This document shows positions 48 through 12,502 of a stretch of 12,502 nucleotides of DNA, one piece after another. The stretch is taken from the UHGV virus genome UHGV-1789726, one strand, 5' to 3'. A model generated the notes under the pieces. That model did not search any database, was not told the origin of the DNA, and worked only from the letters and a program-made list of their open reading frames with translations. The DNA comes from a virus. Each line of letters opens with the position of its first letter. Position 1 is the stretch's first letter. The position numbers were made by a program, and so were the translations under genes.

Positions 48-81
48 CCAGCGCCTTTGTCAATCAATGGTGGCTCAGGCG

Positions 82-174
82 GGGGCTTCTTCGGAAGCGC
101 CGGTATCCTTCAGAGCCGGTTACGCCAACCCTGTCTGGGCTACCACCAGCGAAATTGGCGTTTCCGGTGGTAGC
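82..174 (+). promoter_or_regulatory. Structured 5' leader: UUCG-tetraloop hairpin (stem 85-89/94-98) and a 9-bp-stem hairpin (139-147/166-174)
   Basis: GCTTC-TTCG-GAAGC at 85-98; GCTACCACC (139-147) pairs with GGTGGTAGC (166-174) across an 18-nt loop. The 180-aa ORF called across this region has no RBS and low-complexity translation. Confidence 0.3.
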
Positions 175-203
175 GTAACCTGCTATCTGAAGGAGGCTGC
201 CAC

Positions 204-398
204 ATGCTGGCTACTACCCCTACCCAAAAAACGCAATTTATCTGGATTATCGCCGCAGTTCGCCGCGATTGCCCGACAATTACCGCCAAAATTCATCATA
301 TTGCTGCCGAGTCTGAACGCGATGCTCGCCGTTCTCTGGTGCGCGATCACATCTGCTTTTTTGCTGGTCGTATCCGCATGGAGGTGGCACATGATTAA
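204..398 (+). CDS. Small early protein, Icd/Kil-like (host cell-division inhibitor family of P4-type prophages), 64 aa
   Basis: AGGAGG at 191-196, 7 nt before ATG 204. Translation (FIWIIAAVRRD...RRSLVRDHICFFAGRIRMEVAHD) resembles Icd-like proteins from memory, unverified. Stop overlaps next start (ATGATTAA). Confidence 0.55.
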   Translation: MLATTPTQKTQFIWIIAAVRRDCPTITAKIHHIAAESERDARRSLVRDHICFFAGRIRMEVAHD

Positions 399-609
399 AA
401 CCTACGATGTGCATATGGATCCCCTCGAACGCACAAGCCAGATCATCACACTGACAGAAGTGATTAACGACATTCTGGTGAGCAACTCTCCCTCACGAGA
501 CGAAAAACTGAAGGCGTTACTCGCGATATTGGACCTCGCCGTTCGTGACGTTCATTTCCTGCTGGAAGGTGGACAAATGCCATGCAAAACGGGGGCAACC
601 AATGAATAA
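391..609 (+). CDS. Hypothetical small protein, 72 aa (internal start of the 67..609 track ORF)
   Basis: GGAGG at 381-385 before ATG 391; start overlaps the previous stop; stop overlaps next start. Confidence 0.5.
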   Translation: MIKTYDVHMDPLERTSQIITLTEVINDILVSNSPSRDEKLKALLAILDLAVRDVHFLLEGGQMPCKTGATNE

Positions 610-796
610 CTCAATTAATACCCCTCGCCTTACGTCCGCACTTCAATTAATCGAGCAAGCAGCGGCTGTCCTGGTTGCTGTCAGTCTTTCGGCTGAAGAA
701 ATGGACGCTGCTGATGTCGTGGATGCGATTAAAGCGTGCTCATCTTTGGTTAACGATGCCCGTGCCGAGCTGGTAATTCTTGGGGGTGAAAAATGA
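602..796 (+). CDS. Hypothetical small protein, 64 aa (internal start of the 545..796 track ORF)
   Basis: ATG 602 preceded by a G-rich SD-like run (GGGGG); overlaps previous stop 607-609; stop overlaps next ATG at 793. Confidence 0.45.
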   Translation: MNNSINTPRLTSALQLIEQAAAVLVAVSLSAEEMDAADVVDAIKACSSLVNDARAELVILGGEK

Positions 797-1056
797 ATAT
801 CAACTTAATTTATCGTCATCCGTGTGAGCTGGAAATTGAATCATTGCTGGGGCGCGAAGAGCCATATCCAGACACATTCACTCCCGCAGATTGCGCGACT
901 GAACGGCTTACCAGAGCGCGCACAGGTCTGGTTCATGTGATGAATGAGATTGTTCCCTCGGTGGGAGGGGAACAGGCGACAGTAATCAATAGCTGGCTAC
1001 AAAAAGTTACCTCCCTGATAGATATCGGTTTAATCGATGTGGAGAGTGCGAAATGA
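793..1056 (+). CDS. Hypothetical protein, 87 aa
   Basis: GGGGGTGA SD-like sequence before ATG 793; ATGA overlaps at both ends. Confidence 0.55.
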   Translation: MNINLIYRHPCELEIESLLGREEPYPDTFTPADCATERLTRARTGLVHVMNEIVPSVGGEQATVINSWLQKVTSLIDIGLIDVESAK

Positions 1057-1274
1057 CCAACATCCAGCTCATTGAAGCGCAATGTCGCATCGAACAGGTT
1101 CAGACTGTTTTAGGGTTCTGGCTTGAAGGGGCCAGCCCCAGCAACAGAGACAAGTTAATGATTGGCGCGGTTATGTCACTGCTCAATGGCGTACCAGAAG
1201 CTATTCAGGAAGCGGACGAATTGTTGGGCAAATATGAGTTACAGAATCATTCAGGCGAGGCGAAACATGAATAA
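1053..1274 (+). CDS. Hypothetical protein, 73 aa
   Basis: GGAGAG before ATG 1053; overlaps neighbours at both ends. Confidence 0.5.
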   Translation: MTNIQLIEAQCRIEQVQTVLGFWLEGASPSNRDKLMIGAVMSLLNGVPEAIQEADELLGKYELQNHSGEAKHE

Positions 1275-1869
1275 TTTCTTAACTTTCCATGCAGAAGCAA
1301 CGCCTGACGGCGTAAACATCATGTACCGCAGCAACGATGGCATGACAGAACGCGTTGAGACCGTCTCATATATTGATGCCGTAAATCGTCTGGATGCCGG
1401 GGATTATGACGATAAACCAGATGAAGGCATGTTTATACATCTCGCTATTGCCAGTGGCGGCAACCAGGGATATTTCGATTACACATCACAGCATCACGTG
1501 ATTATGTGGCGCTGGCTGATAGCAACAGCATTCATCAATGAAATGAGAAAGGAAAACGGCACTGTCAGCATCATTGATGATACTGGCAATCCTTCCGAAG
1601 TGGCTGTTTATTCCAACGGCATCGTCGCCATGCCGCTGTATCCAGTAGCAGAGCGCCTCGCTATGGCAAACAACATTGAGGGCGCGATGATAGAACGTTT
1701 TGGCATCGAGTCTGGCACAGAACGCGCCATCATTTTCTACAGAGCCATGATGGATGTGGAACAAGGAGCACTGACTCCATTTGGTCGTGAAACGCTTGCT
1801 GAACTTCACAACAGCTTTATAGCTGAACTGAATGAAAACGGCATGCCAGCGGAACCAGTGACGCACTGA
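1267..1869 (+). CDS. Hypothetical protein, 200 aa (internal start of the 1162..1869 track ORF)
   Basis: ATG 1267 overlaps the stop of the previous gene (ATGAATAA); GAGG upstream. The N-terminal extension in the track has no RBS and overlaps the previous gene. Confidence 0.6.
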   Translation: MNNFLTFHAEATPDGVNIMYRSNDGMTERVETVSYIDAVNRLDAGDYDDKPDEGMFIHLAIASGGNQGYFDYTSQHHVIMWRWLIATAFINEMRKENGTVSIIDDTGNPSEVAVYSNGIVAMPLYPVAERLAMANNIEGAMIERFGIESGTERAIIFYRAMMDVEQGALTPFGRETLAELHNSFIAELNENGMPAEPVTH

Positions 1870-1879
1870 GGATGGAGCC

Positions 1880-2221
1880 ATGATTACTAAAAATTTCCGA
1901 CTGAATGCGCTGGCAAATAAGTATGCGTCAGCACTGTATAACCACATTACCTCCACCAGCGGCGGGGACTATTTCATGATTGATGCGGACGGAGAGGCCG
2001 TCCGTGTGGAAATCGTCAATGGAGTAAAAGGCGTTCGCAGCCTGATCGATAGTTACGCACTGGCAGCCATGAAAGTGTTCTACCCGCAGTGGGAAACCGT
2101 GGGGATCGAGCTTCTTGATCGTTGCGTCACTAAGGACAGATTGACTGACGTCGGGCGTGAGATATGGCAAAGCATGGTTAATGACATGGGCGCAACTGTA
2201 GCGGGAGGTTCTCATGCGTGA
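1880..2221 (+). CDS. Hypothetical protein, 113 aa
   Basis: GAGGATGGAG SD-like sequence 5-8 nt before ATG 1880; 10-nt gap from previous stop. Confidence 0.65.
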   Translation: MITKNFRLNALANKYASALYNHITSTSGGDYFMIDADGEAVRVEIVNGVKGVRSLIDSYALAAMKVFYPQWETVGIELLDRCVTKDRLTDVGREIWQSMVNDMGATVAGGSHA

Positions 2222-2585
2222 AAATGTAGAAATGGCGCTTAGCTCCGCAATCGGAGAGCAGGTGGCAAAGATTGCTGGTGCTGTGTGGATTCATAACCTT
2301 CATTCTACTGGTGAAGAGAAAATGGCAATTCAGACGCCAGAGGGACGCACCATTACTACATCTCTGAAGCCGTCAGATGTTTGTGATCTGATTTGCGCAT
2401 TCATGTACCCAGCAATGAGGACTGTCCACGGCGATAAGTGGAAACTTGCGACAACCGCTGAATTTGATATGTGGCTAAACAATGATGGCATGCTGACTGA
2501 TTACGGAATAACCAAGTGGCAGATGCTAGTTAGCCATATCGCAAACGCTATAGACCACGTGGGGTACGGTGATGCGAAACATTGA
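2214..2585 (+). CDS. Hypothetical protein, 123 aa
   Basis: GGGAGG before ATG 2214; start overlaps previous stop; stop overlaps primase start. Confidence 0.65.
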   Translation: MRENVEMALSSAIGEQVAKIAGAVWIHNLHSTGEEKMAIQTPEGRTITTSLKPSDVCDLICAFMYPAMRTVHGDKWKLATTAEFDMWLNNDGMLTDYGITKWQMLVSHIANAIDHVGYGDAKH

Positions 2586-5328
2586 TCTTATCCGTCAGGT
2601 TATCAGTGCGTCTGAAAACAACTGGCCTCATGTGCTGGGCTGCCTGAACATAAATGTCCCTGACTCTCCGCGCCGTCATGCTCCCTGCCCTGCATGTGGG
2701 GGCAAAGATCGATTCCGGTTCGATGACAACGGGCGCGGTAGCTTCATCTGTAATCAGTGCGGCGCTGGTGATGGGCTGGATTTAATTAAACGCGTAAATA
2801 ACTGCGACACAACAGAGGCGGCGCTTCTTGCCGCTGATGTTCTGGGTATTGATTACCGGACAACGGAAACACCAGAAGCCACCAGCCAGAAACGGGAACA
2901 ACTGGAAACCGAGCGCCAGCGACGCGAACAGGAGCGCCTGAAAAGGGCAGAGAAGGACGAACAACAAAGACGGGATACGTTTTCCCGTCAGTTTGATGAC
3001 ATGCGCAGAAAGGCTGTAAACGGCAAATCTGATTATCTGGTTGCGAAAGGGGTAGGTGATTTTACATTCCCCGTGTTGCCCGATGGATCTCTGTTGCTGG
3101 CGCTGGTGGATAAATCCGGCGCAGTAACAGCAGCACAGACTATTACCTCACATGGTGAAAAAAGACTCCTGACAGGTTCAGCAAAGCGAGGGGCATATCA
3201 CGCCATAAACGCACCAGAAACAACACAGAGCATCTTAATCGCAGAAGGGCTGGCAACGGCATTATCTGCCCATTTAATGCGTCCAGAGGCGCTGACAGTG
3301 GCGGCGATTGATGCCGGGAACCTGTTATATGTCGCCCAGGTACTGCGGGATAAATTTCCTTCAGCACAAATCATCATTGCTGCGGATAACGACCACAGCG
3401 AAGGAAGACAAAACACGGGGAGAATAGCAGCAGAAAAAGCAGCTTTATCTGTTTCTGGATGGGTGGCATTACCCCCGACAGATCACAAAGCAGACTGGAA
3501 TGATTACCACCAAAAACACGGCATTAAATGCGCCACAGAAGCGTTCAATAAGTCAATGTACCAACCACAGGGTAATGGCGTGAAACAGGAGCCACAGACC
3601 ATTGAGGGAAGCGATTTTAAGGTTATGGATACCGATCCACTGAAACCAAGAATAGAAAGCCGCGAGGATGGTATTTATTGGGTATCTCCGAGAGCTGACA
3701 GCCAGAGTGGAGAAATCATCAATAACGAAAGCTGGTTATGTTCTCCGTTAAGCGTTATCGGTACTGGCAGAGACGATAAAGACCAGTATCTCATTCTTCG
3801 CTGGCTGTCGTTTGGTTCTGAAACGCCGACAACCGCTGCCATTCCACTGGCTGATATTGGTGAACGTGAAGGATGGCGCACACTTAAAGCTGGTGGGGTA
3901 AATGTCACGACCAAAAGCAGCCTCAGAGCAATACTGGCAGACTGGCTACAACGCAGTGGCTCTCGTGAATTGTGGCGTGTTGCTCATGCCACTGGCTGGC
4001 AATGCGGAGCGTACATCATGCCTGATGGGGAAATCATCGGAACACCTGAAAATCCTGTGCTGTTCAGCGGGAGAAGCTCAGCCGCAGCCGGATATACCGT
4101 CTCAGGGAGCGCGAAAAGCTGGCGTGATAACGTGGCGCGTCTGGCCTTTGGTAACTATTCAATGATGACCGGGATCGGCGCAGCACTGGCAGCGCCATTG
4201 ATTGGGCTGGTGGGCGCTGACGGGTTCGGCATTCATTTCTATGAGCAGTCGAGCGCAGGTAAGACCACCACGGCAAACGTGGCGAGCAGCTTATACGGCA
4301 ACCCTGATTTACTGCGGCTGACGTGGTACGGAACCGCGCTGGGGCTGGCAAATGAGGCCGCCGCCCACAATGACGGACTAATGCCGCTTGATGAAGTTGG
4401 TCAGGGCGCTGATCCTGTCAGCGTTTCACAGTCTGCCTATGCGTTATTTAACGGTGTAGGGAAACTGCAAGGCGCTAAAGATGGTGGAAACCGGGATCTA
4501 AAACGCTGGCGTACAGTGGCAATCAGCACCGGAGAAATGGATTTAGAAACATTTATCGCTACTTCCGGGCGAAAAACCAAAGCCGGGCAACTGGTGCGAC
4601 TGCTGAATATTCCGTTGAGTAAAGCAGTACGCTTTCACGATTACCAGAACGGAAAACAGCACGCAGACGCACTGAAAGACGCTTACCAGCATCACCACGG
4701 CGCGTCCGGGCGTGAGTGGATTAAATGGCTGGCAGACCACCAGCAACAGGCTATTAAAACCGTTCGTGACTGCGAAAGCAGATGGAGAAGCCTGATCCCA
4801 TCCGATTATGGTGAGCAGGTTCACCGTGTAGCCGCGCGATTTGCCATTCTGGAGGCCGCATTGTTGTTAGGCGAGGTTGTAACAGGCTGGGATGCTCAGA
4901 CATGCCGTGATGCGATACAGCACAGCTATAACGCATGGTTGCGCGAGTTCGGCACAGGTAACAAAGAGCATCAGCAGATTATTGAACAAACGGAGGCATT
5001 TCTTAATGCCTATGGGCTTAGCCGTTTTGCACCATTTCCATACAGCCCGGCAGATTTGCCCATCAAAGATTTAGCCGGATACCGTCAGCGTGGAGAACAT
5101 GACGAAAGCCCAATGATTTTCTACACATTCCCGGCCACATTTGAAAAGGAGATCGCATGTGGTTTCAACGCAAAACAGTTTGCTGAAGTGTTGAAAAAAG
5201 CCGGGATGCTAACCCCACCAAACAGCGGTCGTGGATACCAAAGAAAATCACCACGTATTCAGGGACGACAAATAAACGTTTATGTACTCAATTACCAGCC
5301 AGGAGATTACAACTCATCTGAAGAATGA
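2572..5328 (+). CDS. Primase-helicase (P4 alpha / PICI Pri-Rep type): N-terminal zinc ribbon, TOPRIM, C-terminal P-loop domain; about 918 aa
   Basis: CPACGG...CNQCG zinc ribbon (nt ~2686-2766); TOPRIM signature with IAEG Glu (nt ~3244) and AADND (nt ~3385); SSAGKTT P-loop (nt ~4258). ATG 2572 preferred over the track's GTG 2569. Confidence 0.9.
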   Translation: MRNIDLIRQVISASENNWPHVLGCLNINVPDSPRRHAPCPACGGKDRFRFDDNGRGSFICNQCGAGDGLDLIKRVNNCDTTEAALLAADVLGIDYRTTETPEATSQKREQLETERQRREQERLKRAEKDEQQRRDTFSRQFDDMRRKAVNGKSDYLVAKGVGDFTFPVLPDGSLLLALVDKSGAVTAAQTITSHGEKRLLTGSAKRGAYHAINAPETTQSILIAEGLATALSAHLMRPEALTVAAIDAGNLLYVAQVLRDKFPSAQIIIAADNDHSEGRQNTGRIAAEKAALSVSGWVALPPTDHKADWNDYHQKHGIKCATEAFNKSMYQPQGNGVKQEPQTIEGSDFKVMDTDPLKPRIESREDGIYWVSPRADSQSGEIINNESWLCSPLSVIGTGRDDKDQYLILRWLSFGSETPTTAAIPLADIGEREGWRTLKAGGVNVTTKSSLRAILADWLQRSGSRELWRVAHATGWQCGAYIMPDGEIIGTPENPVLFSGRSSAAAGYTVSGSAKSWRDNVARLAFGNYSMMTGIGAALAAPLIGLVGADGFGIHFYEQSSAGKTTTANVASSLYGNPDLLRLTWYGTALGLANEAAAHNDGLMPLDEVGQGADPVSVSQSAYALFNGVGKLQGAKDGGNRDLKRWRTVAISTGEMDLETFIATSGRKTKAGQLVRLLNIPLSKAVRFHDYQNGKQHADALKDAYQHHHGASGREWIKWLADHQQQAIKTVRDCESRWRSLIPSDYGEQVHRVAARFAILEAALLLGEVVTGWDAQTCRDAIQHSYNAWLREFGTGNKEHQQIIEQTEAFLNAYGLSRFAPFPYSPADLPIKDLAGYRQRGEHDESPMIFYTFPATFEKEIACGFNAKQFAEVLKKAGMLTPPNSGRGYQRKSPRIQGRQINVYVLNYQPGDYNSSEE

Positions 5329-5353
5329 GCTTCTTCATGTGCGTAGAAAAGGC

Positions 5354-5464
5354 GTTGGTTCAGTTGGTTCAGTTGGTTCAATTTGTAAAGAGTATTGTTT
5401 TATAAGGATTTTATTCTTTTTATTGAACCAACACTGAACCAACAACACGGTATTTTGAACCAAC
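5354..5464. repeat. Iteron cluster / candidate origin: 3 tandem GTTGGTTCA, a 43-bp AT-rich spacer, then 3 inverted copies TGAACCAAC
   Basis: Direct copies at 5354-5362, 5363-5371, 5372-5380; AT-rich 5381-5423; inverted copies at 5424-5432, 5435-5443, 5456-5464 (11 bp and 21 bp centre-to-centre). Sits immediately 3' of the primase gene. Confidence 0.65.
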
Positions 5465-5784
5465 ACAATGTGACTGAATTGATGCGCACAACACCTGGCT
5501 GGCATCAGAGAGTGTTTTACGAGACTTTCGTAAAATCCTGTGTACAAGGGCGTGACGTTTTTGAAAGTGAGCACTACGAAATTTTCGTAGTTCAGAAAAC
5601 AGCCTCTGAGAAGTTGTTATGCCTGTTCAGCAAACCATCCGCATAGCTGATCGCGAATCAAATTACCAATGGAGCCAGAAGCAAGGGCAGAACTGAAAAG
5701 CGCCTGCCGTGAAGAGTAATGCGACACCATAAATATAGTTTTTAGAGTCCATAAAAAACCTGTCAAAACCTGACACACAGAACG

Positions 5785-5817
5785 ATGCCACCAGCTACTG
5801 AGCGGTGGCATTTTTTT
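5785..5817 (+). terminator. Rho-independent terminator
   Basis: 8-bp stem ATGCCACC (5785-5792) / GGTGGCAT (5804-5811) with an 11-nt loop, followed by a T7 run (5811-5817). Confidence 0.6.
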
Positions 5818-5912
5818 GTGCTATTTGTTTCATATTTTGCAATTACGATGATGAATATTGCGATTTGTGAAACTATAATAACTGTTGTTTTATACAGTTC
5901 TAAGGGGGCGTT

Positions 5913-6074
5913 ATGGCTATTTCAGTAAAGCCGGTATTGATAAGTGAGAAGCAAATGGAAGCGATAAAGAAAATTCAGGAAGAGCAGCGTAAAAAATCAG
6001 GAATTGGAGTAGCGCCAACTCTGCATGAAATTGCACGAGGGTTAATAGATAAGGCGCTGGCAGGCTGTATGTGA
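5913..6074 (+). CDS. Small ORF, 53 aa, absent from the ORF track; possible ribbon-helix-helix (Arc/MetJ-like) regulator
   Basis: AAGGGGG at 5902-5908, 4 nt before ATG 5913; stop TGA 6072-6074. Translation MAISVKPVLISEKQMEAIKKIQEEQRKKSGIGVAPTLHEIARGLIDKALAGCM has a strand-helix-helix layout. Fold assignment is inference. Confidence 0.45.
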   Translation: MAISVKPVLISEKQMEAIKKIQEEQRKKSGIGVAPTLHEIARGLIDKALAGCM

Positions 6075-6090
6075 AAATGGATGGCATCGC

Positions 6091-6552
6091 ATGGAACTAA
6101 AATTTATTGATAACCCTGTGCGATTACAGGCCTTTCTTAACGAGCCAGGCAATACCGAAAATATTGTTGAGCCGGGGCACACGTACTACATCAAGCCTGA
6201 TGCGGTATATCTCGGCATCTACGAAGGATTAGTGCTGGCTGGCGTTCATGAAGTGCGTAACTTCTGGCATAGCGTTGTTGAATGCCATGCGGTGTACGAC
6301 CCCGGATTCCGTGGTGAATATGCACTGCAAGGACATCGATTATTCTGCAAATGGCTTCTCGAAAACTCACCATTCCTTAACAGCATCACTATGGTTCCTG
6401 ACACCACGAAATACGGACGGGCAATTATCCGTTTGCTTGGCGCTACCCGTGTTGGTCACCTTGATGATGCTTATATCAGATGTGGTAAACCCGTCGGCGT
6501 AACGCTTTATCAGTTAACTCGGCAACAATATAAGGAATTCAGCGAATGTTAA
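6091..6552 (+). CDS. Hypothetical protein, 153 aa; first gene of the four-gene cassette
   Basis: Long ORF, non-repetitive sequence; stop overlaps next start (6546). Confidence 0.7.
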   Translation: MELKFIDNPVRLQAFLNEPGNTENIVEPGHTYYIKPDAVYLGIYEGLVLAGVHEVRNFWHSVVECHAVYDPGFRGEYALQGHRLFCKWLLENSPFLNSITMVPDTTKYGRAIIRLLGATRVGHLDDAYIRCGKPVGVTLYQLTRQQYKEFSEC

Positions 6553-7223
6553 TTACCCATATAGCTCATAAACATCTCAATCGTGCCGTATACGAAAAAG
6601 GCGGTGATGGTGGTGCCTCTAAAGCTCAGGCGAAGGCCCAGCAGCAGGCAATTGATTTGCAGCGCGAGCAGTGGAATACGGTGATGAATAATCTCAAGCC
6701 GTATGCAGAAGTCGGATTGCCTGCTTTACAACAACTACAAGGACTGATGACTCTGGAAGGGCAGAATAAAGCCGCGAATGATTTCTTTGGTTCTGGTTTA
6801 TATAAAACACAGGCAGATCAGGCCCGTTATCAGAACCTTGTCTCAGCAGAAGCTACCGGGGGGCTTGGCTCAACAGCTACCAGTAACCAGTTATCTTCCA
6901 TTGCGCCCATGCTTTATAACAATTGGCTTAGTGGGCAAATGCAAAATTATGGAAACCTGCTAAATGTCGGGATGAATGCGGCATCAGGGCAGGCAACGGC
7001 AGGGCAAAACTACGCCAATAATACCGGACAACTCTTGCAGGGGCTTGGCGCTATTCGTGCAGGTCAGGCGCAGCAGCCATCCAGTCTTGCGCGTGGTATT
7101 GGTGGGGCAGCATCAGGCGCTTTAGCGGGTGCGCAACTTGGTTCCGTTGTTCCTGGAATAGGAACTGCGGCCGGCGCTATTGGTGGTGGGCTTATTGGTC
7201 TTGTTGGGGGGCTTGGATTCTAA
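6546..7223 (+). CDS. Q/N/A/G-rich protein, 225 aa, with C-terminal glycine-zipper hydrophobic segment; internal-virion/ejection-protein-like
   Basis: AAGGAA 9 nt before ATG 6546. C-terminus GIGGAASGALAGAQLGSVVPGIGTAAGAIGGGLIGLVGGLGF (nt ~7083-7220). Stop overlaps next start (TAATG). Confidence 0.75.
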   Translation: MLITHIAHKHLNRAVYEKGGDGGASKAQAKAQQQAIDLQREQWNTVMNNLKPYAEVGLPALQQLQGLMTLEGQNKAANDFFGSGLYKTQADQARYQNLVSAEATGGLGSTATSNQLSSIAPMLYNNWLSGQMQNYGNLLNVGMNAASGQATAGQNYANNTGQLLQGLGAIRAGQAQQPSSLARGIGGAASGALAGAQLGSVVPGIGTAAGAIGGGLIGLVGGLGF

Positions 7224-8542
7224 TGGCGACATGGCAACTTGGCGGGCTGCCTAGCATGGCACCGCAAAATGATAATGCTCCTCGTTCTTCCGTTCCTCAG
7301 CCTGTGCAGTATCAGCAGCAGCCAAACGTAGGTTTAATGGCGCTACAGGGGCTAAGAGGCGTTGCTGAGATTAATCAGCAGGCGCAAATTTCCCAGCAGC
7401 TAAAAGAATATCAGGCACGGTTGGGTAGTGCGGTAGCTAATAATGATCGTGTTGGCGTGCAGAAGTTAATGGCCCAGTATCCCCAGTTTATGGCTGATTC
7501 TCAAAAACAGATGGGATTCATTGATGCTGAGCAAAATCGGCAGACCGCTGACGCTGCCATGAATCTGCGTCTTGCGTCACAAACTGGAGATCCACTGACC
7601 ATGCAGAAGGCCATTCAGCAGGCAAATCCAGTATTACAGCGATTTGGTCTTCCTGCTGAAGAGGTTTATCAGTCTTGGCAGAATGACCCACAGGAATTCA
7701 ACAGAATCACTGACCTCATCCACCTCCATGCTGATCCAAATAGTTACTTTAGTGTTCAAGAGAAGCAGCAAGGGCAGAGTATTGCACAGCAGAACGCAGA
7801 TACATCTGCATATAATGCTCAGGTTAATGCGGAGCAGGGTAATCGGCGGCTCGATATGGAGCAGTTCAAAGTCCTATCCGATAACCAACTACGCACGAGA
7901 GAAATGGTTCTGAAAGCACGACTTGGACGTGCTCAAAATGACATCGAGAGAGACAAGCTCAATGCTGAACTGAGCAAGGTACAGCAGGCGAAAGTGGAGA
8001 AGATGAACGATAAAATTAATACTGTTGCAGGTAATATCGACTCCTTGAACTCTGCGCTTGAAGTGGGTCATGAACTGGCGGGAATTGTAGGGAAACATCC
8101 TTCGGCCGTTACCCGTTCGCAGAACTATAACCCCCTGACGCTGGGGTTTGGATTCCTCCCTGATGTAGCAGAAGACACACGAAGCCTACGCGCCAAAGCT
8201 GATGAATACAACCTAAAGGTTATTCTGCCTAGCCTAAAAGGTACTTTTGGCTCTAACCCAACCGAAGGGGAAAGGGCTGCCCTTATGCAATCTCAAAATG
8301 GCATTAAGTCAGCAACCAGCAATGAGGCATTTTTGCGAGAGTTGAATAAAGCGCAGGACGTAATTATTCGAATGCAGAAACGACAGATTGCCGGGCTCGG
8401 TATTCCTGTAACCAAATCTAAGGACGAAGAAACTGATACCAAAATGCTGTTGCAGGATCCTTCACTGGTTAAGGATTATGTGACCGCACATGGCTATCTG
8501 CCGGAAAGTTACTATCAGGCAAAACTTAAGGGATGGCAATGA
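7223..8542 (+). CDS. Gln-rich, predicted helical/coiled-coil protein, 439 aa; internal-virion/ejection-protein-like
   Basis: Long ORF coupled at both ends; Q/A/N-rich composition. Confidence 0.8.
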   Translation: MATWQLGGLPSMAPQNDNAPRSSVPQPVQYQQQPNVGLMALQGLRGVAEINQQAQISQQLKEYQARLGSAVANNDRVGVQKLMAQYPQFMADSQKQMGFIDAEQNRQTADAAMNLRLASQTGDPLTMQKAIQQANPVLQRFGLPAEEVYQSWQNDPQEFNRITDLIHLHADPNSYFSVQEKQQGQSIAQQNADTSAYNAQVNAEQGNRRLDMEQFKVLSDNQLRTREMVLKARLGRAQNDIERDKLNAELSKVQQAKVEKMNDKINTVAGNIDSLNSALEVGHELAGIVGKHPSAVTRSQNYNPLTLGFGFLPDVAEDTRSLRAKADEYNLKVILPSLKGTFGSNPTEGERAALMQSQNGIKSATSNEAFLRELNKAQDVIIRMQKRQIAGLGIPVTKSKDEETDTKMLLQDPSLVKDYVTAHGYLPESYYQAKLKGWQ

Positions 8543-11259
8543 TGGCACAACTGACAGAAAAACAGAAAGCCTATTCCCGTCATCTCGATGAAAAATATGG
8601 TTTCCCATCAGGGACGATGGAAACATTAGTTGGCAATGAATCTAGTGGTAACGGAAGTGCCGAGTCACCGAAAGGAGCTAGAGGATTTGCTCAACTGATG
8701 CCCTCAGTAATGAGTGATGCTGGTTATCGTGGAACAGATCCGCGCTCACTGCCATTTGAAAAGCAAATGGATATCGCAGCAAACCATCTCAATAAAGGAA
8801 TGAAGCGATTTGGTGATATAGGTATGGCATTGGCTGGGTATAATTCTGGCTATGCTCGTATTAATGCCGTAAGAAACGGTAAATCTACACTGCCAGATGA
8901 AACGGCTAATTACGTAAGTAAATTTGCAGATGCCGGAATAATCCCTGATGACAGTGAAATCTTGCAGTTTGCACAAACCAGTCAACATCGCAATCTTCAG
9001 CAGCCTGACTACTCAGAGCTTGATAAAGAAATCTCTCAGGTGGGAGATATTTCTGCATGGGAAGCAAAACGTCAGCAATTTAAGAACATAGAAGCAGGAC
9101 TACCAACAGCCAGTTCATGGGAGCAGAAAAGAGCTCAGTTTCTCGCCGATGAAAATGCCGGGGAACCGCAGCAGCAAGTAGCCAAGTCTAACCTTAATCC
9201 TGAGATGGAATATCTTTCGCCAGGACTGAAAGCTGCGCCAGAGCAGATGGCCAGAGGGATTGCTAATATACCGTTTGATGTAATGGACGCAGGCGTGGGG
9301 GTAGTCAATGCGGCGCAATCAGCCGGAGCATGGGCAGCTCAGAAGCTTGGTGTGGGTGATGGCACATACACGCCCATATCACCTGTCTTTCGCCCAGTAG
9401 ACCAACCTACAGATCCATACGCGCAGGCTGGTGAGCAGCTAGCACCTTACCTTATTACAGGATTAGGTGCAGGAAAGGCAGCTACCGCAGCTTCTTCAGT
9501 TGCCAACGCTCCACGTGCTGAACGTGCGGCCACAAAGGTGGCTAGTATGTTGGCAGAAAACCTGCCAGGTACATTGGTGAACGCCCAAAAGAACGGGCAG
9601 ATCAGCCCAGAAGACCTAGCAAAAGAGACAGGTATTGGCCTAGCAGGATCGCTAGGAGCACGCGCTTTAATAAAGAGCGGACAGACAGCCAGTGACGTAA
9701 TGCGAGATGTATTGCGGAGTAATACAAATCAATCAGGCCATGTGTTAGGGGCAGCAAATACTCTGGAAACCGCCAATGATGTATCGAAAGCAGCGCGTTC
9801 TGCCGTAGGCCGAGAGCATATCGCATCGCAGGCATCAAACGTCAGAGATGATGTCGCTAAGGCGGCGAAAATCACTGGTATTAATATCAACACCCTGACG
9901 CCTGGAATGCGCTCAGGTAGTCGTGGAATTGCCCAAGCAGAAGGTGTTCTGGCATCAACTCCTGGGAATGTTCAGGATGCTCACCTTACGGCCTTCAATG
10001 AAATATCCTCAAAGTTGAATAAGCAGTTGTCTGATTTCGGTGCTGAGTCTGGAAGCGCATCAGAAAAAAGCGCAGCAATTAAAGAGCGCATCATCGCGAG
10101 CCTCAGTGATATGAAAACAGCAGAGAATATGGCATGGGCAGAACTGCGAAGCACGATGCCACGCGAAAGGATGAAAATGAGTAATGGGATGGCTGTCGTC
10201 CAAGCAGAAAAAGCAGCCAATGTTCCACTCAGCCCGGAGATGAAACAGTTTCAGGCTGCCAACAACCAAGGTGGCGGCATAACCTTCGACGGGATGAAGG
10301 CATGGCGTGCTAAGTTTGCTGATGCTGAACAAGCAAACACCCGGGCAGGTAAGGCCAATGCCGCCCGGATTGCCGGAGAAATGCGCAGAGCTATCACTGA
10401 TGACATGCGCATCATGGCTGAAAAAGGAAACTTCCTCACAGAATGGCAGAAAGCTAACGATCTCTCTAAAAGTTACATTATCGCCAAACAAAATGCCGAA
10501 TCTGTTTTTGGTCGAGATCTCGCATCAGACGCTATGGTAAGAAAAGGTGCCGATACGCTTAAGGCATCCGCAAACACTGGAACTGGAGCTTTTCACCGTC
10601 TTATCTCCGCGCTGCCGGAAGCAGAACGCCAACCAGCAATAGCATCTATTCTTCAGCATGCTGTGGCGCAGGGAGAGAAGGGAGGAATCGGTGAAGAGTC
10701 TGGTATCCAGTATTTTGCCAAGCTCATGACCCAGCAGAATGTAAACGCCATCAGTCGTCATGCGCCAGATCTCGGTAGAATGATGAAAGAGTTCGGTGTA
10801 CTCGCTAAAGCCAGCACCAGACCGCAGCGATACGTAGAGCGCACGGGAAGAACAACTGAGGCTCTCAAAACGCTCGATTCAGGCCTTCCAAAGATCGTCG
10901 GCGTGATTATGAACGGAGTTCAACAGTCAGGTGCGATCGCTGGAGGCTTTGGCGGTGGTGTAATTGGTTCGATTAGTGGTTTGGTTGCTGGTGGCGCGCT
11001 GAGAAATACTGTGGCTAAGATTGGGGCGACAAGAAGTGGTAGGTATGCGATAGAGAAAGCCGTTCAGGAAGCTACAAAAGCAGTGCGCGCAGGGGCATCA
11101 CCAGCAGCGATCGCCGCAGCAGAGAAACGATTTTCGGCCAATAAAATTGCCATGAAAGCAATTCGTGATGCCGTTGGGGCTGAAGAATTCGTGAAACTGA
11201 CAAGGGCCGGGATTGTAGCTACCCTCAGTGGCATGAAAGATGTTAGCGAATGGGAATAG
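8533..11259 (+). CDS. Large protein, 908 aa, with N-terminal family-1 lytic transglycosylase (SLT) motif set and a glycine-zipper segment near the C-terminus
   Basis: Motifs E-S (GNESSGN, nt ~8638), G-x-x-Q (GARGFAQLMP, nt ~8692), A-Y-N-x-G (ALAGYNSGYA, nt ~8839); GAIAGGFGGGVIGSISGLVAGGA at nt ~10900-11000. Start may be 8533, 8539 or 8542; AAGGGA at 8526-8531 favours 8539. Confidence 0.85.
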   Translation: MAMMAQLTEKQKAYSRHLDEKYGFPSGTMETLVGNESSGNGSAESPKGARGFAQLMPSVMSDAGYRGTDPRSLPFEKQMDIAANHLNKGMKRFGDIGMALAGYNSGYARINAVRNGKSTLPDETANYVSKFADAGIIPDDSEILQFAQTSQHRNLQQPDYSELDKEISQVGDISAWEAKRQQFKNIEAGLPTASSWEQKRAQFLADENAGEPQQQVAKSNLNPEMEYLSPGLKAAPEQMARGIANIPFDVMDAGVGVVNAAQSAGAWAAQKLGVGDGTYTPISPVFRPVDQPTDPYAQAGEQLAPYLITGLGAGKAATAASSVANAPRAERAATKVASMLAENLPGTLVNAQKNGQISPEDLAKETGIGLAGSLGARALIKSGQTASDVMRDVLRSNTNQSGHVLGAANTLETANDVSKAARSAVGREHIASQASNVRDDVAKAAKITGININTLTPGMRSGSRGIAQAEGVLASTPGNVQDAHLTAFNEISSKLNKQLSDFGAESGSASEKSAAIKERIIASLSDMKTAENMAWAELRSTMPRERMKMSNGMAVVQAEKAANVPLSPEMKQFQAANNQGGGITFDGMKAWRAKFADAEQANTRAGKANAARIAGEMRRAITDDMRIMAEKGNFLTEWQKANDLSKSYIIAKQNAESVFGRDLASDAMVRKGADTLKASANTGTGAFHRLISALPEAERQPAIASILQHAVAQGEKGGIGEESGIQYFAKLMTQQNVNAISRHAPDLGRMMKEFGVLAKASTRPQRYVERTGRTTEALKTLDSGLPKIVGVIMNGVQQSGAIAGGFGGGVIGSISGLVAGGALRNTVAKIGATRSGRYAIEKAVQEATKAVRAGASPAAIAAAEKRFSANKIAMKAIRDAVGAEEFVKLTRAGIVATLSGMKDVSEWE

Positions 11260-11409
11260 ACGCTCTAACTAACAAAACCATAATAGCCAAGGACGGCATA
11301 CTGATATTGAGCCAACTATCAAAATTCCATATCACATTACGGGCCTGTGGCTTACATTCGCTTACAGTGATGATAATTTATAACCACGCAATTCTTAGGT
11401 GAGATTATC

Positions 11410-12108
11410 ATGATTAAAAATCTTCTTTTAATATTATCCCTGTCATTATTGGCTGGATGCGTACAAAAACCGTTAGTAACGGTCAATGCTTTATCTTCCG
11501 GGCAATCTGTCGGTAAGAAGTTCTTGATCATCCCCGCAAGCCAAGAACTTTGGAACACCAAACAGATTGAATACACTCAAATAGCTACGGTAGTAGCCGC
11601 CAGTTTATCAAGCCAAGGATATACACAAGTTAAAGATGAAAAATTGGCTGACCAGGTAATTCTCTTGAACTTTTTGAGAAGCGGGGCCATTTCAAATACT
11701 CGTAATGTAACCATCCCAATATACGGGCAAACTGGTGTGAGCTCAGCAACAACGTACGGAAACTCGAACACCACGTTCAATAGTTATGGTGGTGGCTACG
11801 GTACAGCTAATACCACTGGAACGGCAACAACAGTTTATACGCCTACTTATGGAATTACTGGCGCGTATAACACAACTGTGACGGACACGTTCTACGGCGC
11901 AGGGGTGATACTCCAGTCGTTTGATGCCAAGGCTTATCTCAATAATAGGCAGATTAATATGTTATGGAAAGTTGGTAGCTCAGTCGTCTCGCAACAGTCT
12001 GATGGAATTGCTGATTACAAGGGGTTGGCGAGAATAGCCGCTAGCTATGCCGGGAAAAATACAGAAGGTGATATAACTTTTAATGTTGACCCTAAAGCAC
12101 CAAATTAA
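11410..12108 (+). CDS. Putative lipoprotein, 232 aa, with Thr/Gly/Tyr/Asn-rich central region
   Basis: AGGTGA 7 nt before ATG 11410; signal peptide plus lipobox MIKNLLLILSLSLLAGC. Region looks more AT-rich than the rest by eye. Confidence 0.8.
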   Translation: MIKNLLLILSLSLLAGCVQKPLVTVNALSSGQSVGKKFLIIPASQELWNTKQIEYTQIATVVAASLSSQGYTQVKDEKLADQVILLNFLRSGAISNTRNVTIPIYGQTGVSSATTYGNSNTTFNSYGGGYGTANTTGTATTVYTPTYGITGAYNTTVTDTFYGAGVILQSFDAKAYLNNRQINMLWKVGSSVVSQQSDGIADYKGLARIAASYAGKNTEGDITFNVDPKAPN

Positions 12109-12115
12109 CTAATAA

Positions 12116-12137
12116 GCCCGGTACGCCGGGCATTTAT
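12116..12137 (+). terminator. Weak terminator-like hairpin after the lipoprotein gene
   Basis: GCCCGG (12116-12121) / CCGGGC (12126-12131) with a TACG loop, followed by ATTTAT; T-tract is poor. Confidence 0.35.
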
Positions 12138-12236
12138 GCCCCTATTATTCATGAATCGCTTTTTCTAGAAGGTATGCGACAAACGTTAAGTGACATTGCC
12201 TACACATTCGGGGCGGGATTTCAAATCCGCTCCCAG

Positions 12237-12408
12237 TTGATGGGGGGCGTTACAGTACGCGCATATCCGCTTTATGTGAAACAGGAAGATTTTTCTGATA
12301 TCACTGCCACAGCAAAACACCAATTTCGTGACCAGTACGCGCGCGAGGGGTATCAGTTGCAAAAAATTTTGCAACTACGTCCGACCAGTACGCACACGAT
12401 GGCGGGGG
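12237..12408. repeat. Repeat-rich noncoding region: three copies of CAGTACGC, two longer direct repeats flanking a 20-bp palindrome
   Basis: CAGTACGC at 12253-12260, 12333-12340, 12386-12393; GACCAGTACGC at 12330-12340 and 12383-12393; palindrome GTTGCAAAA-AA-TTTTGCAAC at 12356-12375; GATGG(G/C)GGGG at 12237-12247 and 12398-12408. Confidence 0.45.
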
Positions 12409-12502
12409 ATACCATAAAACTGTTCTCTACATGAGACAGAGTGGTGGTGAACCGCCCCGGGAATCCTGGAGACTAAACTTCCTGAGAAAGAGGTAAACAG
12501 GA

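Follow-up and report, generated by a model that had tools for sequence, protein, structure and literature searches.

An EcCIMP1-type phage-inducible chromosomal island carries a P22-type ejection cassette that ends in a lytic transglycosylase-gp16 fusion

Satellites are known to steal or remodel the capsids, the packaging specificity or the tails of their helper phages. EcCIMP1, a phage-inducible chromosomal island (PICI) of 19,963 bp in Escherichia coli MP1, excises only with the P22-like helper phage vB_EcoP_Kapi1 (Kapi1 hereafter), which transduces it at low frequency (Pick, Stadel & Raivio, ISME J 2025, PMC11773190). Three of its genes, EcCIMP1_017 to _019, were called hypothetical packaging candidates, and no phage structural genes were identified in the island (PMC11773190); the words 'ejection' and 'transglycosylase' are absent from that paper. 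In phage P22, virions incorporate functional foreign ejection proteins that are only 22-26% identical, gp16 and gp20 are required as a matched pair, and the type of ejection protein affects the sensitivity to SieA exclusion (PMC10883804). Here we describe a stretch of 12,502 nucleotides (nt), UHGV virus genome UHGV-1789726, which will be called the window and which carries an open reading frame (ORF) of 908 amino acids (aa) at 8533-11259. The element is an EcCIMP1-type PICI and not a phage, and the ORF, named SLT-gp16 below, closes a translationally coupled cassette made up of a 53-aa ORF, a gp14-like gene, gp7, gp20 and SLT-gp16. Judged by sequence, SLT-gp16 and the three genes upstream of it make up a complete P22-type ejection cassette. 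The features of SLT-gp16 itself are as follows, in positions of the window.

8533..11259, + strand: SLT-gp16 fusion, in which an N-terminal lytic transglycosylase domain precedes a P22-type ejection ('DNA transfer') protein (ORF translation, Pfam, PHROG 770)
8545..8982, + strand: folded lytic transglycosylase domain, aa 5-150 (Pfam, AlphaFold, Foldseek)
8638..8640, + strand: codon of the predicted catalytic Glu36 in the E-S motif (Slt70 alignment, invariance in homologues)
9097..11124, + strand: gp16-family region, aa 189-864, largely helical, with low model confidence for aa 152-515 (PHROG 770, PF26808, hhalign, AlphaFold)
9241..9468, + strand: conserved block aa 237-312, EQxxRGxxNIPFD...RPVDxPTDPYAQAGE (BLASTP, phage matches)
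10930..10992, + strand: glycine zipper G800-x3-G804-x3-G808-x3-G812-x3-G816-x3-G820 (motif scan)

The ORF is translated without interruption from the ATG at 8533, and further in-frame ATGs lie at 8539 and 8542. The true start is more likely to be 8539 (906 aa) than 8533, because the ATG at 8539 forms an ATGA overlap with the gp20 stop (8539-8542) and is preceded by AAGGGA about 6 nt upstream. This is also the start given in RefSeq, where the name of the protein is 'lytic transglycosylase domain-containing protein'. Residue numbers are nevertheless counted from the 8533 start throughout. Hydropathy analysis found neither a signal peptide nor an N-terminal transmembrane segment. A full-length AlphaFold model was poor, with a mean predicted local distance difference test score (pLDDT) of 54.6 and fold-search E-values of 0.02 or worse. 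In it, the N-terminal domain was modelled with confidence and the helical stretches of aa 515-760 and 823-900 with moderate confidence, whereas confidence was low for aa 152-515 and 760-823. A separate model of aa 1-155 was therefore built in place of the full-length one.

A first-pass annotation, made from the letters alone, had placed lytic transglycosylase motifs at the N-terminus and the catalytic Glu codon at 8638-8640, and had proposed alignment of the N-terminus to SLT family profiles and conservation of the Glu in homologues as tests. The Pfam SLT profile (PF01464) indeed matches aa 17-119 (nt 8581-8889) significantly, scoring 48 bits (E 1.1e-12; gathering score 21.3), and the E-S motif is E36-S37 (nt 8638-8643), with E36 encoded where it had been predicted. 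The G-x-x-Q motif was likewise found as claimed, within motif II (G-x-x-Q-[LV]-M), which reads G51-F-A-Q54-L-M-P from nt 8683. Only the third motif differs from its earlier description: it reads A100-G-Y-N-S-G106 (nt 8830-8850), a slight variant of the textbook A-Y-N-x-G and not its literal form. Comparison of aa 1-156 with PDB sequences returned only marginal matches (E 0.065 to 0.21), which were used solely for residue alignment. When aligned by HMMER with Slt70 of E. coli (1QSA), E36-S37 of the query falls on E478-S479, and Glu478 is the known catalytic acid of Slt70.

The E-S, GxxQ[LV]MP and Y-N/H-x-G motifs are kept in 19 of the 19 SLT-bearing homologues, which were drawn from Escherichia, Citrobacter, Leclercia, Serratia and Tatumella and include SLT domains only 32-36% identical to that of the window. 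Residues E36 and S37 are invariant in this set, as are, among others, S38, G51, Q54, M56, P57, Y103, G106, E123 and Y127. The domain model, built on the homologue alignment, reached a pLDDT of 92.7 and a pTM of 0.87. When it was compared with the PDB using Foldseek, the 50 matches listed were all lytic transglycosylases (among them Slt, MltE, MltD, MltC, MltF, LtgA and Cj0843), a Ralstonia GH23-type chitinase, or gp16 of phage T7. The best E-value was obtained with Pseudomonas aeruginosa Slt (5ohu, E 1.4e-4, TMq 0.64) and the best TM-score with T7 gp16 in the mature core (9jyy_I, TMq 0.70). On account of the profile match, the alignment of the catalytic residue and the predicted fold, the N-terminal domain is assigned to the family-1 lytic transglycosylases (GH23), with a predicted lysozyme-like alpha-helical fold. 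Muralytic activity yielding 1,6-anhydro-MurNAc would be expected of such a domain.

Downstream of this domain, PHROG 770 ('DNA transfer protein') covers aa 189-864 with an E-value of 1.8e-120, and both PF26808 (Phage_P22_gp16) and PF01464 are recorded in the protein database for the identical cluster and its relatives. Alignment by hhalign of a profile of 23 homologues to P22 gp16 gave a probability of 99.9% (E 1.2e-32) over 366 columns, spanning query residues 153-631 and residues 8-390 of P22 gp16. These matches identify the body as a putative P22 gp16-type ejection protein, in agreement with the earlier prediction of a phage genome-delivery protein; a protein of this type would be expected to travel in the virion and to leave it ahead of the DNA. 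Compared with P22 gp16, the SLT domain is thus an extra N-terminal part. A search of PDB sequences with the full protein (phmmer) gave no match, and NCBIfam held no informative family for any of the cassette proteins. SLT-gp16 is thus a member of two known families, and a near-identical copy (99.8% aa identity) is already present in RefSeq and in the published island, namely the 906-aa protein WP_000968283.1 of EcCIMP1. The part following the N-terminal domain had been described as A/K/Q-rich, which is correct for Ala (16.7% of aa 141-908) and not for Lys and Gln (6.0% and 5.7%, respectively), Gly being more abundant than either (9.4%); Ser and Glu account for 7.6% and 6.2%.

The C-terminal glycine zipper that had been noted does exist. 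It consists of six Gly at i, i+4 spacing, that is, five consecutive GxxxG motifs, from G800 to G820 (nt 10930-10992). G800, G804, G807-809, G812 and G816 show no variation across the 23 homologues, with or without an SLT domain, so the segment matters for the protein. The best 19-residue Kyte-Doolittle hydropathy of SLT-gp16 is located at the zipper and amounts to 1.55, the usual transmembrane threshold being 1.6, and the pLDDT is below 50 for aa 760-823, where the zipper lies. It may be a membrane segment or a helix-packing segment. In P22 gp16, the C-terminal residues 476-609 were reported to be dispensable for membrane association in vitro (PMC10883804). No BLASTP alignment placed the zipper against G532 and P546, the SieA-escape positions of P22 gp16.

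One block of the body is shared more widely than the rest. By BLASTP, aa 237-312 are 46% identical to aa 73-137 of P22 gp16 (E 1e-16), and matches over aa 177-312 occur in phages that are otherwise without similarity to SLT-gp16. The block is common to the otherwise unrelated gp16 proteins of P22, the Sf101 type, phiv205-1, UPF_BP1 and JEP4, whereas none was detected in gp16 of Kapi1. Its role might be in incorporation into the virion or in docking to gp20.

Compared with known ejection proteins, SLT-gp16 shares with P22 gp16 (609 aa) a homologous body and the same place after genes 14, 7 and 20. P22 gp16, however, lacks the SLT domain, is 300 aa shorter and is encoded by a phage, and the C-terminal halves of the two proteins do not align by BLAST. 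The same two-part fusion is found at full length, with 46-56% identity, in Serratia prophages and in two phages, Dewey (PQ850600) and Huey (PQ850609), for which the value is 46.7% over aa 21-903, with the catalytic motifs and the glycine zipper as in the island protein. The SLT domains of the Dewey type and of one Serratia type are among those only 32-36% identical to that of the island. In Dewey, Huey and two Serratia prophages, unlike in the island, the fusion lies inside complete P22-like virion modules, in which portal, coat, gp4, gp10 and needle genes are followed by 14-7-20-16 and then by the tailspike gene. The SLT-gp16 architecture is therefore not new, since true P22-like phages also carry it, and the noteworthy part is the presence of an ejection module on a satellite. 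The Sf101-type third ejection protein (annotated 'transglycosylase' or 'lytic tail fiber protein', PHROG 21143) shares the SLT domain and the sequence up to about aa 312 (33% identity), beyond which its C-terminal body is both unlike that of SLT-gp16 and shorter; the profile of PHROG 21143 spans 576 positions. The helper's own protein, Kapi1 gp16, has no SLT domain.

In T7 gp16 (1318 aa), which forms a core stack, an N-terminal lytic transglycosylase is likewise fused to the largest ejection protein, and this part of T7 gp16 superposes on the predicted domain (9jyy_I, TMq 0.70, root-mean-square deviation 3.4 Å; 7k5c_B, TMq 0.65). No sequence similarity to T7 gp16 was detectable beyond the N-terminal region, and PHROG 342 matches aa 9-217 only. 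SLT-gp16 was not placed in the T7 gp16 family because no homology over the whole protein was detected; the likeness lies in the architecture and in the lytic transglycosylase fold.

The genes that surround SLT-gp16 in the window and bear on its interpretation are the following.

5913..6074, + strand: conserved 53-aa ORF heading the cassette (homology in other islands, dN/dS)
6091..6552, + strand: gp14-like DUF2824 protein, 153 aa, labelled 'head morphogenesis' in PHROGs (Pfam E 1.5e-61, PHROG 651)
6546..7223, + strand: gp7-type ejection protein, 225 aa (Pfam P22_gp7, E 6.6e-73)
7223..8542, + strand: gp20-type ejection protein, 439 aa (Pfam Inj_translocase, E 3.7e-22; PHROG 917/2534)
11410..12108, + strand: predicted lipoprotein, 232 aa (sequence, hydropathy)
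2569..5328, + strand: Zn-ribbon/Toprim/DUF927 primase-helicase for island replication (Pfam, PHROG 1139; same gene in EcCIMP1)

The order 14-7-20-16 is identical to that in P22, Kapi1 and Dewey, and stop and start codons overlap at each of the junctions gp14/gp7, gp7/gp20 and gp20/gp16. The first-pass annotation had regarded the 908-aa protein as standing without a virion context. This is right insofar as there are no capsid, portal, terminase or tail genes, and it does not hold for the immediate neighbourhood, where gp14, gp7 and gp20 lie directly upstream. The 53-aa ORF that opens the cassette matched no family and has no counterpart in the modules of P22, Kapi1 and Dewey; its versions in islands of Citrobacter and Leclercia are 85-91% identical. 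A scan for promoters and terminators gave nothing above shuffled expectation.

The assignment to an EcCIMP1-type island follows from the comparison with MP1, to which the window is 98.8% identical at the nucleotide level over 190-12450. Insertion site and gene order are shared with EcCIMP1 of MP1, and the window differs from it at both ends, with a longer ash gene on the left and an insertion of the IS3 family of insertion sequences (IS) on the right. In two annotated strains the island is about 19-20 kb long and is inserted at tRNA-Thr between proA and yagU/pao. Its genes comprise an integrase, an alpA-type helix-turn-helix protein, an antA/B antirepressor, DUF4222, ash, the primase, the cassette, two small genes, Abi and PerC. 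No gene for a capsid, portal, terminase, tail or lysis protein is annotated in the island, though the island does carry genes for internal virion (ejection) proteins. Against phage records, megablast of the window matched only a piece of about 400 nt in the gp14 gene of Kapi1-like phages and the IS629 ends; because these are short pieces only, the window does not derive from a sequenced phage.

At least 80% of the window is present at about 99% identity in 70 of 5426 complete E. coli genomes. In the same set the primase occurs in 361 genomes, the front of the cassette in 253 and the SLT-type cassette in 72, so that about 1.3% of the genomes have the exact cassette and about 4.7% a related one. 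Islands of Citrobacter and Leclercia carry the same cassette with Ash and primase genes as neighbours and without capsid genes, and all cassette ORFs are intact in the islands of the three genera. The taxonomic breadth was obtained from the protein search and from contig look-ups, as a scan of genome contigs gave a single locus, in Leclercia. The cassette proteins of Citrobacter and Leclercia are 83-90% identical to those of the window, whereas the primase is just 67-68% identical. Between E. coli and Citrobacter, the ratio of nonsynonymous to synonymous substitution (dN/dS, Nei-Gojobori) is 0.02-0.07 for all five ORFs at a dS of at least 1, with 0.02 for the 53-aa ORF and 0.05 for the SLT-coding part alone. 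These values point to strong purifying selection over a long period. Since the ORFs are intact in three genera, dN/dS is low and the cassette is better conserved than the primase, the cassette appears to be functional and no relic.

Neither does the cassette look like a recent capture, because gp20 and gp16 of phages and of the helper are only distantly alike. Among 50,697 phage records the best relative of the island gp20 is 28.5% identical, so that this gp20 is of a sequence type not met with in sequenced phages, and the best full-length phage match to its gp16 is 47% identical, partial matches without the SLT domain reaching about 52%. The closest relatives overall are found in Serratia prophages (gp20 46%, gp16 56%). 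Relative to the helper Kapi1, identity is 84% for gp14 (Kapi1_055), 58% for gp7 (Kapi1_056), 26% for gp20 and 24% for gp16, and the gp14-like gene is about 90% identical at the nucleotide level over about 400 nt. Within the island family, E. coli 2014C-3057 (NZ_CP027387) has an island whose backbone and cassette front are about 99% identical to the window up to nt 7383. Past the equivalent of that position its gp20 is of another type (473 aa), its gp16 (701 aa, PHROG 770) lacks an SLT domain, and 3′ of gp16 lies a gene for a multi-pass membrane protein of 204 aa with a weak SieA-like match (PHROG 7745, E 4e-4).

L011 10311-14470, E. coli 2014C-3057 (NZ_CP027387): gp20/gp16/SieA-like region of the sister island

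Thus gp20, gp16 and the adjacent gene appear to be exchanged as one module within the island family. In the window, the gene next to gp16 is the lipoprotein ORF at 11410-12108, which has a signal peptide (MIKNLLLILSLSLLAGC...) and a lipobox LAGC with Cys17, and which had no match in Pfam, PHROG or NCBIfam. It occupies the position of sieA in P22, where the gene order is 16-sieA. EcCIMP1 has been reported to add to the immunity of lysogens against superinfection by Kapi1 (PMC11773190), and the lipoprotein is a candidate for the gene behind this effect.

We consider it reasonably probable that SLT-gp16 is the inner-membrane-proximal part of a P22-like 'ejectosome', made from a satellite cassette and loaded into helper capsids. 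On this proposal, induction of a P22-like helper would lead the island to excise, to replicate with its own primase and to express its own matched ejection proteins, which would be loaded together with island DNA into procapsids built by the helper. In the next cell, gp7 and gp20 would form the conduit through the outer membrane and the periplasm, the SLT domain of gp16 would cut peptidoglycan locally with Glu36 as acid catalyst, and the gp16 body would finish the channel at the inner membrane. With a gp20/gp16 pair of its own, the island would not depend for its delivery on the ejection-protein type of the helper, and its particles could bypass SieA-like exclusion. We infer the loading into helper capsids, the muralytic activity of the SLT domain and a selective advantage. 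The acceptance of foreign ejection proteins by P22 virions speaks for the feasibility of such loading (PMC10883804). The requirement of P22 for matched gp16 and gp20 fits the presence of the full set on the island and the joint exchange of these two genes.

Several observations weigh against this proposal. Transfer of EcCIMP1 by Kapi1 is inefficient (~5e3 particles/ml), and Kapi1 titres are the same with the island, so that mixing with the helper's proteins would have to take place without a visible effect on the helper (PMC11773190). Kapi1 gp16 lacks the conserved N-terminal block seen in the island gp16, which bears on co-assembly, and the entry of the island's ejection proteins into particles is itself a step that we infer. 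Membrane insertion of the zipper, moreover, is a supposition backed neither by its hydropathy (1.55) nor by model confidence. Finally, the lytic transglycosylase of T7 gp16 is needed only under certain conditions (PMC8954989), and for this reason the phenotype of the SLT domain may be subtle.

The island's ejection proteins could instead serve to interfere with the helper, either by poisoning its virions through mismatched gp20/gp16 or by acting inside the cell against incoming P22-like phage. This would agree with the raised immunity of EcCIMP1 lysogens to Kapi1 superinfection, with the finding that mismatched gp16/gp20 pairs yield non-infectious P22 particles (PMC10883804) and with the identities of only 26% and 24% to the helper's gp20 and gp16. 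Against it, the island leaves Kapi1 titres from induced lysogens unaltered, a set of four genes including a gp14-like factor exceeds what poisoning would need, purifying selection is strong over the full length of the protein with the SLT catalytic motifs included, and the lipoprotein at 11410-12108 or the SieA-like protein of the sister island would be a simpler candidate for exclusion. We therefore regard interference as unlikely.

Considerably less probable still is that the cassette was left behind by recombination between a P22-like prophage and the island and is now a passenger without a current role. Such an origin could be read from the location at tRNA-Thr between proA and yagU and from the similarity of the gp14-like gene to that of Kapi1, which implies exchange with P22-like phages. 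This explanation was rejected as contradicted by the selection data, that is, the dN/dS of 0.02-0.07 at saturated dS; in addition, three genera have all of the genes unbroken and with stop and start codons that overlap, conservation exceeds that of the island primase, no phage has a close gp20 or gp16, and the cassette front is found in 253 genomes as compared with 361 that have the primase. Secretion and conjugation systems commonly contain SLT domains, and the RefSeq label mentions nothing other than such a domain, both of which would suit a stand-alone envelope enzyme, either a VirB1-like one that remodels the wall for a secretion or transfer apparatus or an aid to lysis. The fusion of the SLT domain to a full gp16 body and its place after gp7 and gp20 contradict a secretion-system transglycosylase, which was rejected; the same fusion occurs within virion modules of true P22-like phages, the island has no secretion or conjugation genes, and neither a signal peptide nor an N-terminal transmembrane segment was seen by hydropathy. 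We give this last explanation almost no credence. Loading of a satellite-encoded ejectosome into helper capsids thus remains the explanation that we favour.

What is new here is a satellite family with a conserved, modular ejection-protein cassette, previously undescribed; in the literature searched, no paper was found on a satellite that encodes its own ejection proteins. The findings also show that EcCIMP1 does carry genes for virion components, contrary to the paper describing it (PMC11773190), and that a P22-like gp16 can carry a transglycosylase domain, contrary to a 2022 review (PMC8954989). We put forward tentatively, as a broader claim with slightly less than an even chance of being right, that EcCIMP1-type islands are the first recognised satellites with a complete ejection apparatus of their own, loaded into stolen P22-like capsids, in which gp20/gp16 and an exclusion gene are swapped as a module, so that neither the helper's type of ejection protein nor SieA-like exclusion in recipients would constrain the satellite. 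Should the ejection proteins of the island be put to this use, the satellite and not the helper could set the host range and the exclusion resistance of its particles. This would explain why EcCIMP1-like islands are mostly found in strains without a Kapi1-like prophage (PMC11773190), and the swappable island-borne gp20/gp16 would offer a simple genetic system for studying ejection-protein compatibility and SieA-type exclusion.

Outside the cassette, an Ash-family gene (ORF 67-609) lies upstream, and at its start, at window positions 63-150 on the + strand, is a C4 antisense RNA (Rfam RF01695, gathering score 45; here 79.9 bits and E 9e-15), i.e. an immunity RNA of the P1/P7 type inside a PICI. 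In the MP1 copy of the island, an Icd-like gene is located near this RNA. Between the primase and the cassette there is an AT-rich gap of 585 nt (5329-5912, GC content about 0.40-0.43) with two copies of a 22-nt repeat, AGTTTT..GAGTCCATAAAAAA, at 5580-5601 and 5737-5758; a third copy lies beyond the window, upstream in the ash region. The gap is occupied by SSB, ProQ-like and PerC genes in the islands of Citrobacter. It may be a regulatory or origin region.

At the right end of the window, the last 50-60 nt or so (12443-12502) match IS629/IS3-family ends of Stx phages, and alignments of the window with other E. coli islands end at 12450. For these two reasons, the source strain seems to have an IS insertion just after the ORF at 12174-12434. 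A search for attachment site (att) direct repeats with seeds of at least 12 nt and for copies of the tRNA 3′ end found none. The published att core has a length of only 10 nt, TCCTATTATC (PMC11773190), and this core is present in the 3′ end of the tRNA.

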